This document shows, one piece after another, positions 6,701-9,700 of a stretch of 64,000 nt of DNA (positions within the stretch are counted from its first letter, which is position 1; each line of letters starts with the position of its first letter). The notes under the pieces were generated by a model. That model searched no databases. It was given only the letters and a program-made list of their open reading frames with translations, and was not told the origin of the DNA. This DNA comes from Pristiophorus japonicus. Taxonomy: Eukaryota. Both the position numbers and the translations under genes were made by a program. The stretch is from positions 92,814,001-92,878,000 of the forward strand of contig NC_091994.1 of the NCBI RefSeq assembly GCF_044704955.1, in the 5' to 3' direction.

Positions 6701-9700
6701 TATAAGCCTAGTCTGCTCAATCTCTCTTCATAGGACAATCCCCCCCATCCCAGGAATCTGTCTGGTGAACCTTCGTGAATGTTCTAAACATTTTCTCCAT
6801 CTCTGTCCCAGGACACACGTATTCAGGGTGGATATGAAAGTGTGCCAACAATCGACATTCACATGAATCAGATCGGATTTGAGAAAGAATGGCAGAAGTT
6901 TTTAAGAGAATATGTTGCACCTTTAACAGAGAAGATCTACCCGGGCTACTTCACCAAGGTCAGTCCCGCTGTCCAGCTCTGCATGCTCTCGTCCACTCTG
7001 ATTCCTCCCTCGGCGCTGGGGTTACACGGCCACCAGCATTAACATCCACTCACACCCAGTGATCGCGAGACGTTGGGTCCCCTTTAATAACACCCGGAGA
7101 CTCGCATTGTTGCAGGAACATCAGTCGCCAGGCCAAGATGGAGTCTATGGTTTCTCTGCCATTAAAATCAGGGAGGAGTGCCGCGATCTCGGAGGCTGGT
7201 AGAGCTGGAGGGGATTGCAGAGATAAGTAAGGGGAGGACATGAAGGGATTTGAAATGAAGGACAAGAATTTTAAAATAGAGGGGTTACTTAACCAGGAAC
7301 CAGTGTAGGTCAGTGAGCACAGGGATGATGGGTGAACGGGACTTGGTGCGACTGAAGATACGGGGAGCAGAGTTTTAGATGGAGGGTAGAAGTTTATGGA
7401 GGGTAGAAGATGGGAGGCTGGCCAGGAAAGCATTAGAATAGTTAAGTCTAGCGGTAACAAAGGCATGGATGAGGGTTTCAGCAGCAGAAGAGCTGAGGCA
7501 GGGACGGAGACAAGACAATGTTACGGAGGTGGAAATAGGCGATGGAGCAGATCTGGGGTCGAAAGATCAGCTCGGGGTCAGATAAGACACCAAGGTTGCA
7601 AATGGTCTGGTTCAGCCTCAGACAGTGGCCAGAGAGAGCGATGGTGTCGTTGGCTAGGGACCGAAGGCACTGACGTTGGTCTTCCCAATATTTCGTTGGA
7701 GGAAATTTCTGCTCATTCAGTACAGAACGTCGGACAAGCAGCATGACAAATCAGAGACAGTGGAGGGGTCGAGCGAGGTGGTGGCGCGATAGAGCTGGGT
7801 GTCATCAGCGCACATGTGGAATCTAATGATGTGTTTTCGGATGATGTCGCCGAGAGGCAGCATGGAGATGAGAAATAGGAGGGGGCCAAGGATTGATAAA
7901 ACATTTTTTTGTGAAGCTGATCGACAGGTGATGTTGACAGGCGACAGCGGCAGGTGAGGTGGCTTAATCGACTGCACTGAAGGGGCTGCTCCTGCGCTTT
8001 AAACATGGTGAATGTAACTTTGAATAAATAATGCGTGAGCTTGTTCCTGCAGAGACCAGAGAGACTGCCTGTCGATTATTTCTGGGGGTTTGGCAGCCAA
8101 GAGAAGTGAGTTGGAGGATAAAGAGAATGAAATGTGTTGATTCTGTTTAAAACAGTTTCCAACCTGTTCATTAACAGCACCAAACAGTGTTTGTTTATAA
8201 AAGTGTGACTAATAGAATCACTGGCACCCAGTGGAAAATCTTTTGGTTTCAGAGTTAGCTACTGACCTTAATTCTTCACATCAGGCAGTGCAGACACAGA
8301 CTTGGAGGTTGAGGGCCGAGGTTTGAGCATTAATTGAAACCTGTTACAGCAAACCTTCCCCAGGGATGCCAGCTCTGGTCAGACATATTCCTCGAGGTTT
8401 GATCCGTATGATCTCTGGACTCCAACCACCCCACCTGGTCAAACAGCCTTTTCAATCTTCAATATTTTTATAATTAATAAACAAGTTTTCAAAGAAAATG
8501 AAAAAAATAGAATGCCCCTGTGATTTTTCTCCTGGGTTTCTCATAGCAGATCAAGAGTTTATAATCTTCAATCACTAGGGGTACAGGGTCAGCCAGAGAG
8601 AATCTGGGAATCCTTCCCTCCTCCTACACACTCAGCGACTGGGAATTCCCCATCTCCCCTCACACAGTGGGTGACTGGGGCTCCAGCTCCTGATCACTGC
8701 CCCGTGACCCCTGATGGAAACTGTGTATGTGTGTGTGTGTGTGCGCGCATCGGCTGAGGTCAGGATCGGACTCTGCTCTGATGCCGCCACAGTTGAATAG
8801 CTTGCCAACGTTCTCTGCACAGGGTCAGGTACGGAATGTGGATGTGGTAGCAGAGGCCGCAGGATCTGTGGAACCGAGCGCAAGAGGCAGAGAGGAGAAA
8901 GAAACCGTAAAATTAATCATTATCAGACCATTCCAGTTTAGTAATAAACATAATTATTACATCAATAAACTAGTGATTCAGGACACAAACCTATAAGAAC
9001 AGGGACCAAAATGAACATCCAAAAGACTGTTATAAAACGATTATAAACTGTAATGACCGATGACTGTTATCACCATGGTTACTAATGCTGGTTTTGTTTC
9101 TTCCATTTTAAATTTCTGCCTCCCAGGCCCACTCGTTTCTGAACTTTGTAGTGAGATACAAACCTGAGGAGCAGCCCTCGCTCGAACCCCACCATGATGC
9201 CTCAACCTTCACTATTAACATAGCTCTAAACAGGGCAGGAATTGATTATGAGGTAAAACCGGTTCAGTCTCGCTGGAATACAGCAGGAGGATTTGCCTGG
9301 GATGAAGGAGAAACCTGAGGCCTAGGTGCTGCTGTAATACAGGAGAGGCACAAAAGGTTGTCATGACAATGGAGGTAGCTGAGGCCTAGGTGCAGTCACA
9401 GCCTGGGGACCTAGGGCTTTATAAGGTGGGATTTGGTCCTCCCTACCTAATGTCTGCTCTGTAATGGGTGCTGCATGGTATTGCTTCACGCCCCTCTTCT
9501 TTCTTGCAGGCGCTCTTTGACCTGGCCTTTGTAGTTAGATATAAACCTGATGAACAGCCATCTTTAATGCCACATCACGATGCTTCTACTTTTACTTTAA
9601 ACATTGCACTCAACAAGGTTGGAATTGACTACCAGGTAAGTTGTATGTCTGGTGCTTGGGGACGGGCTGGTCTGATTCACTCTGCTCTCGAGTAAGGAGC

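Follow-up and report, generated by a model that had tools for sequence, protein, structure and literature searches.

Swapped exons in known systems and at shark PLOD1

Splice variants of lysyl hydroxylases are known from PLOD2, whose LH2a and LH2b forms differ by a cassette exon outside the catalytic strands and not by a swap of duplicated active-site exons. Functional consequences of these PLOD2 variants are mentioned in PMC13322528 and PMC13382579. A tandem-duplicated exon is swapped in P4HA1 and P4HA2, which like PLOD1, the gene for lysyl hydroxylase 1 (LH1), encode collagen-modifying Fe/2-oxoglutarate (2-OG) dioxygenases; those pairs are old, conserved in fish, kept in human and listed as homologous exons in the available supplements of PMC8373072 and PMC4494069, whereas PLOD1, PLOD2 and PLOD3 have 0 entries in the accessible human tandem-exon catalogue of PMC8373072. 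FGFR2 has a similar layout of upstream (IIIb) and downstream (IIIc) homologous exons with UGCAUG near the downstream acceptor, and according to PMC2880598 the downstream exon is repressed by Fox proteins acting at this element, in favour of the upstream one. Here we describe a 64-kb stretch of DNA (the window) that is the PLOD1 region of Pristiophorus japonicus and holds two tandem copies of exon 18, designated 18a and 18b. Unlike the swapped exons of P4HA1 and P4HA2, this pair itself encodes the His-x-Asp iron ligands and the 2-OG Tyr.

The copies share an upstream neighbour, exon 17 (6812..6958, + strand), and a downstream one, exon 19, whose coding part (12808..12963, + strand) holds the third Fe ligand His, the 2-OG Arg and the stop codon. 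Exons 18a (9127..9252, + strand) and 18b (9510..9635, + strand) are adjacent, stop-free, 126 nt long and in phase 0, each with its own splice sites: the acceptor is CAG in both, and the donor is GTAAAA in 18a (9253..9258, + strand) and GTAAGT in 18b. A consensus-type TACTAAT (9080..9086, + strand) places a putative branch-point A 42 nt 5′ of the 18a acceptor, and a 257-nt intron (9253..9509, + strand) separates the copies. Each encodes 42 residues; 32 of these are identical, with silent codon differences at 19 of the 32, and 88/126 nt agree. The catalytic Tyr, His and Asp are intact in 18a, which has an N-type strand, and 18b, with an F-D-L-A strand, is the orthologue of the single tetrapod exon (human LH1 635-676). 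Similarity between the 200-nt flanks of the two exons is as in shuffles (p 0.39 upstream, 0.25 downstream). The first-pass annotation of this DNA had pointed to the pair, and its exon coordinates, lengths, phase, 257-nt intron, translations and counts of 32/42 residues and 19/32 codons were all reproduced, while the shuffle test bore out its remark that the flanks lack similarity. In layout, single-exon splicing and selection on both copies, the pair behaves like homologous mutually exclusive exons, as in P4HA1 and P4HA2.

We are highly confident that this either/or exon pair is real, expressed, ancient and under selection. The explanation that we consider probable is that exon 18 was duplicated before the split of cartilaginous and bony fish, and that both copies were kept as alternatively spliced homologous exons, possibly under an RBFOX-type switch. 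The outcome would be two full-length LH1 enzymes, about 10 residues apart in the hydroxylase domain.

Gene identity follows several lines. Protein P0124 gave ten exon matches to a PLOD1 gene on the window; the homologue found by database search is named PLOD1 and carries Pfam PF25342, PF25238, PF03171 and PF13704 (PLOD GT, accessory and 2OG-Fe(II) domains); and 18b clusters with the human PLOD1 exon in a 42-column exon tree. Mitofusin (Fzo_mitofusin) matches lie 3′ of PLOD1 on the + strand (33483-33686 and 34224-34364), as in human, where the mitofusin gene MFN2 lies directly downstream of PLOD1. Two further mitofusin loci occur in the genome, on contigs C6 and C13. A search of the species' own genome (5.92 Gb) with the exon returned four matches, namely 18a, 18b, one in a PLOD3-like and one in a PLOD2-like gene on other contigs, and the duplication is therefore specific to PLOD1.

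An assembly artefact, already dismissed in the first-pass annotation, is ruled out by saturated silent sites (pS 0.81) and by a sequencing-run contig that covers 9224-9636 with 0 differences. It is also countered by a teleost-type metagenome contig, L006, which holds the DNA of both exons in the identical layout with a 245-nt intron between them. Saturation of silent sites between 18a and 18b likewise rules out a recent duplication. Elsewhere in the window, intron 17 contains high-copy transcribed repeats with very high contig depth (7240-7900 and 8600-8760), and tandem arrays lie at 10534-10696, 11774-11983, 12553-12642 and 13212-13534.

Splicing of the pair and control of exon choice

Splicing was read from contigs, not reads, of 4 of 24 listed sequencing runs, aligned to 6780-9800. 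Run X21 shows 0 differences from the window; its 2003-nt contig stops at exon 17, and two short contigs run in parallel, one with 18a (depth 75.1) and the other with 18b (depth 28), the latter having the joint 6956>9508; 26-27 letters overhang in each. In run X1, from a related organism, exon 17 is joined to 18a in one contig (24.1) and 18b is present only in an intron-retaining contig (4.5). Run X5, from another related organism, has a 17>18b joint (1087) and an 18b contig of depth 758 whose loose end at 9636 matches the start of exon 19, with 18a present only in a retention contig (90.5). Run X19 contains retention contigs at depths 46.9, 40.1 and 19.8, and its contigs exit at the ends of 18a (~135) and 18b (~46) by hand arithmetic on depth tables. 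Each exon is therefore singly spliced between shared flanks, as 17>18a in X1, 17>18b in X21 and X5 and 18b>19 in X5; exon 19 lies outside the contig-aligned stretch, and the 18a>19 joint is present in the annotated isoform X1. The balance differs by sample, with both arms in X21, 18a dominant in X1 and 18b dominant in X5. Double skipping was not seen in the contigs shown for the four runs.

Both products are also annotated. A homology search found that the 772-aa UniRef PLOD1 isoform X1 of P. japonicus (UniRef100_UPI00398EBAFC) contains 18a exactly, while isoform X2 of the same cluster (UPI00398E6659, also 772 aa) carries 18b and differs from X1 at 10 positions, all within this exon. The two forms likewise have records in gar (XP_015192562.1 and XP_015192560.1) and skate (XP_055515227.1 and XP_055515226.1), and proteins with only 18a and with only 18b are both found in chimaera, sharks, skates, gar, catfish and cavefish. 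Among 54 listed proteins from five fish clusters, 17 are 18a-only, 19 are 18b-only, 14 hold both exons, 3 hold neither, and the remaining one, a chimeric model, defied classification; a second count gave 7/27 18a-only and 20/27 18b-only. The first-pass statement that no such PLOD1 isoform is known was thus mistaken, as both forms are annotated in this species and in many fish. The RefSeq and UniRef fish isoforms X1/X2/X3 are these very products, issued as automatic models for which we found no functional or evolutionary description, and the pair is apparently undescribed. No description of it was found in open-access PMC and bioRxiv, subscription journals being outside the search. In the accessible material PLOD1 does not appear in the PMC8373072 supplement, in the searched file of PMC4494069 or in six text files of PMC7954323, where fish lists of mutually exclusive exons may sit in other files. 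The portions of PMC7538616 and PMC13322528 available to us mention plod1a for expression only.

The proposal of mutually exclusive splicing stands in so far as the contigs show either/or junctions, but exclusivity is not strict: 14/54 proteins hold both exons in frame and the intron is often retained. Might the two be independent cassettes that are often included together, so that 42 residues are repeated within the protein? Such models are numerous, comprising the 14/54 members and many "isoform X1" representatives, 126 nt preserves the frame, and the distance of at least 197 nt between the 18a donor and the candidate branch points precludes steric hindrance. However, no 18a>18b joint or contig occurs among those shown for the four runs (4/4), contigs cross the 18b acceptor (X1, X19, X21) or the 18a donor (X5) without a break, and both Pristiophorus cluster proteins are single-exon forms. 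Doubled core strands would also be hard to fit into a jelly-roll fold, and we hold frequent co-inclusion to be improbable. AlphaFold2 gave the both-exon protein a predicted local distance difference test score (pLDDT) below 50 over residues 550-784; the 18a-only control was also weak (hydroxylase-domain block means 37-81), with shallow alignments, and the models carry no weight here.

The 257-nt intron is retained in three of the four runs (X19, X1 and X5), and retention brings an in-frame TGA at 9316-9318, upstream of the third iron ligand. Read-through proteins of the form exon 17-18a-intron occur in chimaera, skate, eel, cavefish and others. These observations bear on the alternative that the switch is real but mainly controls dosage, such that choice of 18a leads to retention and a premature stop that tunes the amount of LH1, the two enzymes being near-equivalent. 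The retention contigs of X19 (40.1), X1 (4.5) and X5 (90.5), the read-through proteins and the conserved weak 18a donor described below fit such a role, as does the loss of hydroxylase activity in LH3 truncations without the third His, reported in the accessible text of PMC6082870. A pure poison role, however, needs no conserved 18a protein, whereas 18a has a dN of 0.19 between shark and teleost and Asn at residue 6 in 79/79 distinct copies; spliced 18a-only forms dominate runs X21 and X1, and retention may be plain unspliced pre-mRNA, since run X19 has coverage of introns 17 and 18b as well. Dosage control as the main role therefore appears unlikely, though less so than the other alternatives weighed here. 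The intervening intron is conserved among sharks, with 29 differences and 10 gaps over ~400 nt in a contig of run X5 and 11 and 27 in run X1, and a direct repeat of 15 nt occurs in it near positions 9315 and 9380.

Returning to a switch that yields two enzymes, its control may reside in two conserved features. The 18a donor is off-consensus at +5 in both shark (GTAAAA) and L006 (GTAAAT), and translations that read through the donor give V-N or V-K in 25/25 distinct 18a and V-S in 51/54 18b, counting only cases that begin with V. A TGCATG, the putative RBFOX-type element (9472..9477, + strand), lies 32 nt 5′ of 18b in the shark and 26 nt in L006, within an intron that is otherwise unalignable (p 0.78). 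Translations in three frames are compatible with TGCATG before 18b in 16/22 fish-type and 1/9 tetrapod-type open reading frames (ORFs) (Fisher p 0.004) and at 2/32 other acceptors, a count of compatibility only, over related ORFs grouped by residue 20. A further TGCATG is present at 6980-6985, just 3′ of exon 17.

Other means of enforcing the choice found little footing. Steric exclusion, which calls for a branch point less than ~50 nt from the upstream donor, does not apply, as the candidate branch-point As at 9450 and 9488 lie at least 197 nt from the 18a donor. RNA pairing gave no signal either (intron folding z 0.31; best inter-intron duplexes no better than shuffles), and because 126-nt exons keep the frame, the frame cannot enforce exclusivity.

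The conserved weak 18a donor and UGCAUG suggest an FGFR2-like switch, since the layout matches IIIb/IIIc, in which Fox on UGCAUG represses the downstream exon. We lean slightly towards a model in which 18b is the default and an RBFOX-family protein switches the choice to 18a. The strong donor would lead to selection of 18b by default, and an RBFOX-family protein on the UGCAUG just 5′ of 18b would block recognition of 18b and aid the weak 18a donor. Incomplete switching would leave 17-18a-[intron]-18b-19, with a premature stop leading to decay or a hydroxylase-dead protein. The systems differ in that in FGFR2 it is the 3′ splice sites that are unbalanced and decay eliminates doubly included transcripts, whereas in PLOD1 the conserved imbalance lies at the donors and co-inclusion would be in frame; RBFOX action, moreover, is demonstrated in FGFR2 and inferred in PLOD1.

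Age and spread of the pair

Both copies have been under long constraint. Between shark and the teleost-type L006, 18a has a nonsynonymous divergence (dN) of 0.19 and a synonymous divergence (dS) of 0.85, and 18b a dN of 0.075 with saturated dS; between 18a and 18b copies dN is 0.175-0.30 and dS is saturated. In the exon tree, 18a is set apart from all 18b in 100% of 200 bootstrap trees, with the tetrapod exons on the 18b side, and an approximately unbiased (AU) test rejected a grouping of cartilaginous-fish 18a and 18b together (p 0.015), as a duplication confined to cartilaginous fish would require. Chimaeras, sharks, rays and ray-finned fish have orthologous copies of the pair. These low dN values, saturated dS and the exon tree uphold the earlier suggestion of an old duplication with purifying selection on both copies.

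A profile search with 18a returned 1205 matches, the best 120 of which comprise chimaera, sharks, rays, bichirs, sturgeons, gar, eels, many teleosts, unnamed ORFs and three flatworm repeat proteins, with no named tetrapod, coelacanth or lungfish among those 120. None of 130 tetrapod proteins, from mammals, birds, reptiles, two newts and one frog, has 18a; 127 are 18b-only and 3 lack the region. Many of them were retrieved by searching with 18b and large clusters were sampled in part, so the result speaks for annotation rather than for intron DNA. The homology-search listings contain no coelacanth or lungfish PLOD1, and no zebrafish 18a was found in the searches made. The zebrafish plod1a quantitative PCR primers given in the accessible part of PMC13322528 are 18b-type (RPHH; DFQ into exon 19) and would miss any 18a isoform. 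A hagfish protein, P0549, labelled plod1a and with an N-type exon, is not assignable to PLOD1, 2 or 3 and was not used for dating. Double matches in flatworms and an ostracod were set aside as they look like longer domain repeats or merged models rather than this exon pair, and a viral scan with the exon gave one distant, single-copy match.

The simplest account of these sequences is one exon-18 duplication before the cartilaginous/bony-fish split, followed by loss of 18a in tetrapods, and it is very likely that the tetrapod line lost 18a and retained 18b. By sequence comparison the tetrapod F-D-L-A strand is the derived state, because 18a retains the Asn common to PLOD2, PLOD3 and invertebrate enzymes. 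Could 18a instead be a decaying or neutral duplicate raised by annotation noise? Its protein does evolve faster (dN 0.19 vs 0.075) and it is missing in the sampled tetrapods, but it is intact in dozens of fish species, invariant at 28/42 columns and the dominant spliced form in two runs. Conservation and expression together refute this idea, to which we assign next to no likelihood.

Tandem copies of PLOD exons also occur in other animals. Contig L008 (1827-2130), from a non-vertebrate animal PLOD, has the same catalytic exon twice in tandem, as N-type copies of 129 and 126 nt. The intron between them is 49 nt long, and the TACTAAT branch point at its base 25 is directly followed by TGCATG; the flanking exons lie at ~2-150 and 2632. 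We infer that this branch point would be too close to the donor for co-splicing, and the tandem copy suggests that the exon duplication happened more than once. In contig L007, another animal PLOD, the last coding exon with the third His is in tandem (3460-3620 and 4255-4415), each copy with an acceptor and a stop, and the two are candidate alternative terminal exons.

Consequences for the enzyme and for collagen modification

The exon covers human LH1 635-676 and LH3 646-687, in the LH3 numbering of the accessible text of PMC6082870. That source and the available part of PMC13382579 identify Tyr656, His667 and Asp669 as catalytic and Thr672 and Phe673 as dimer-pocket residues. The equivalent 2-OG Tyr, His-x-Asp and dimer-pocket Thr-Phe are invariant in 18a and 18b, and the remaining Fe/2-OG ligands (distal His, 2-OG Cys and Arg) are encoded in the shared exon 19, so that the predicted residue set of an active enzyme is complete in either form.

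Differences that hold across lineages are confined to residues 3-6, which are S/T-variable-L-N in 18a and F-D/E-L-A in 18b, and residue 20; F3, D/E4 and N6 doubled as criteria for sorting the copies. The observation that 18a keeps the NFVV of PLOD2/3 was upheld for the Asn, which stands at residue 6 in all 79 distinct 18a. A Glu beside the HxD of 18a, also proposed at first, is less general: E/D is present in 11/12 distinct cartilaginous-fish 18a, but E in only 23/79 distinct 18a overall, and a frog 18b also has E. A milder form of that proposal does hold: at residue 20, R/K is found in 5/79 distinct 18a vs 71/102 distinct 18b, and sharks have E in 18a vs M in 18b. The frog PLOD1 in question, P0541, has an 18b-type exon with Glu at position 20, as in shark 18a, a possible convergence. 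According to PMC5684110, Glu127 of algal prolyl 4-hydroxylase (P4H) serves to position the substrate and lies 16 residues ahead of the first Fe His. Exon residues 4-6 sit 16-18 positions before the iron His, and because they are placed like Glu127, an altered peptide preference is plausible. We see about an even chance that both enzymes hydroxylate helical lysines with the same core, while residues 3-6 and residue 20, at the substrate groove, give them different peptide preferences or rates.

A more specific proposal, raised in the first-pass annotation as a switch between telopeptide and helix preference, is that 18a makes LH1 an LH2-like telopeptide hydroxylase. The N-F-V-V strand is common to 18a and PLOD2/3, and the determinants of LH2 specificity fall in this segment: the available portion of PMC8055892 ties R680 and R682 of LH2 to telopeptide activity, which E/P replacement abolished. 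These arginines correspond to exon positions 15 and 17, where both copies hold the LH1-type E and P, the very residues that abolished activity in LH2, and an LH2-like switch is unlikely because of this. Furthermore, residue 20 is less often basic in 18a than in 18b, whereas telopeptide sites are acidic, and a separate shark PLOD2 gene encodes R at position 15. The proposal is thus unsupported, and we judge it very improbable.

The explanation preferred here remains an ancient exon pair, possibly switched by an RBFOX-type element, that encodes two LH1 enzymes. Several points weigh against it. No run is on record as RNA, an RNA origin being deduced from spliced joints; the runs are coded, and contig depth is a poor measure of expression. 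Run X19 shows no expected 17>18a contig despite its high-depth 18a exit, so missing joints prove little, and both-exon models are common (14/54 listed; ~20 representatives). As to the switch, 6/22 fish-type ORFs show no trace of TGCATG and the teleost ORFs are related rather than independent; a chance hexamer in such a 45-nt zone has p ~0.016 per intron; and two more TGCATG lie 205 and 263 nt 3′ of 18b (9840-9845 and 9898-9903), where the usual position rule would favour 18b. The exon tree has 42 columns and modest support: neither 18a nor 18b carries a starred branch, and the best tree does not place 18a in a single clade (p 0.41 when it is constrained to one). Tetrapod absence of 18a comes from proteins only, with amphibians represented by two newts and one frog, and the P4H register derives from residue count and recall rather than structural superposition.

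The pair does not establish a new class of mechanism, and both isoforms were already present in databases; new in this analysis are the conserved weak 18a donor and the conserved UGCAUG 26-32 nt before 18b in shark and teleost. Tentatively, jawed fish may make two LH1 enzymes with different collagen-lysine site preference, chosen by cell type through an RBFOX element older than 400 million years; loss of 18a and of the element toward tetrapods may have changed collagen hydroxylation and cross-links, and L008, duplicated independently and likewise with UGCAUG ahead of its second copy, may represent repeated tuning of specificity. If true, the isoform pair would be a natural 10-residue experiment on lysyl hydroxylase substrate choice, which the accessible text of a 2026 review terms unresolved (PMC13382579). 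With two natural enzymes 10 exon residues apart, both long selected, the question of substrate choice becomes directly testable. On this comparison, the F-D-L-A strand of human LH1 would be a derived one, born in an exon duplicate. The human LH1 gene is that of kyphoscoliotic Ehlers-Danlos syndrome, and fish that serve as models for collagen may produce a form of LH1 absent from humans.

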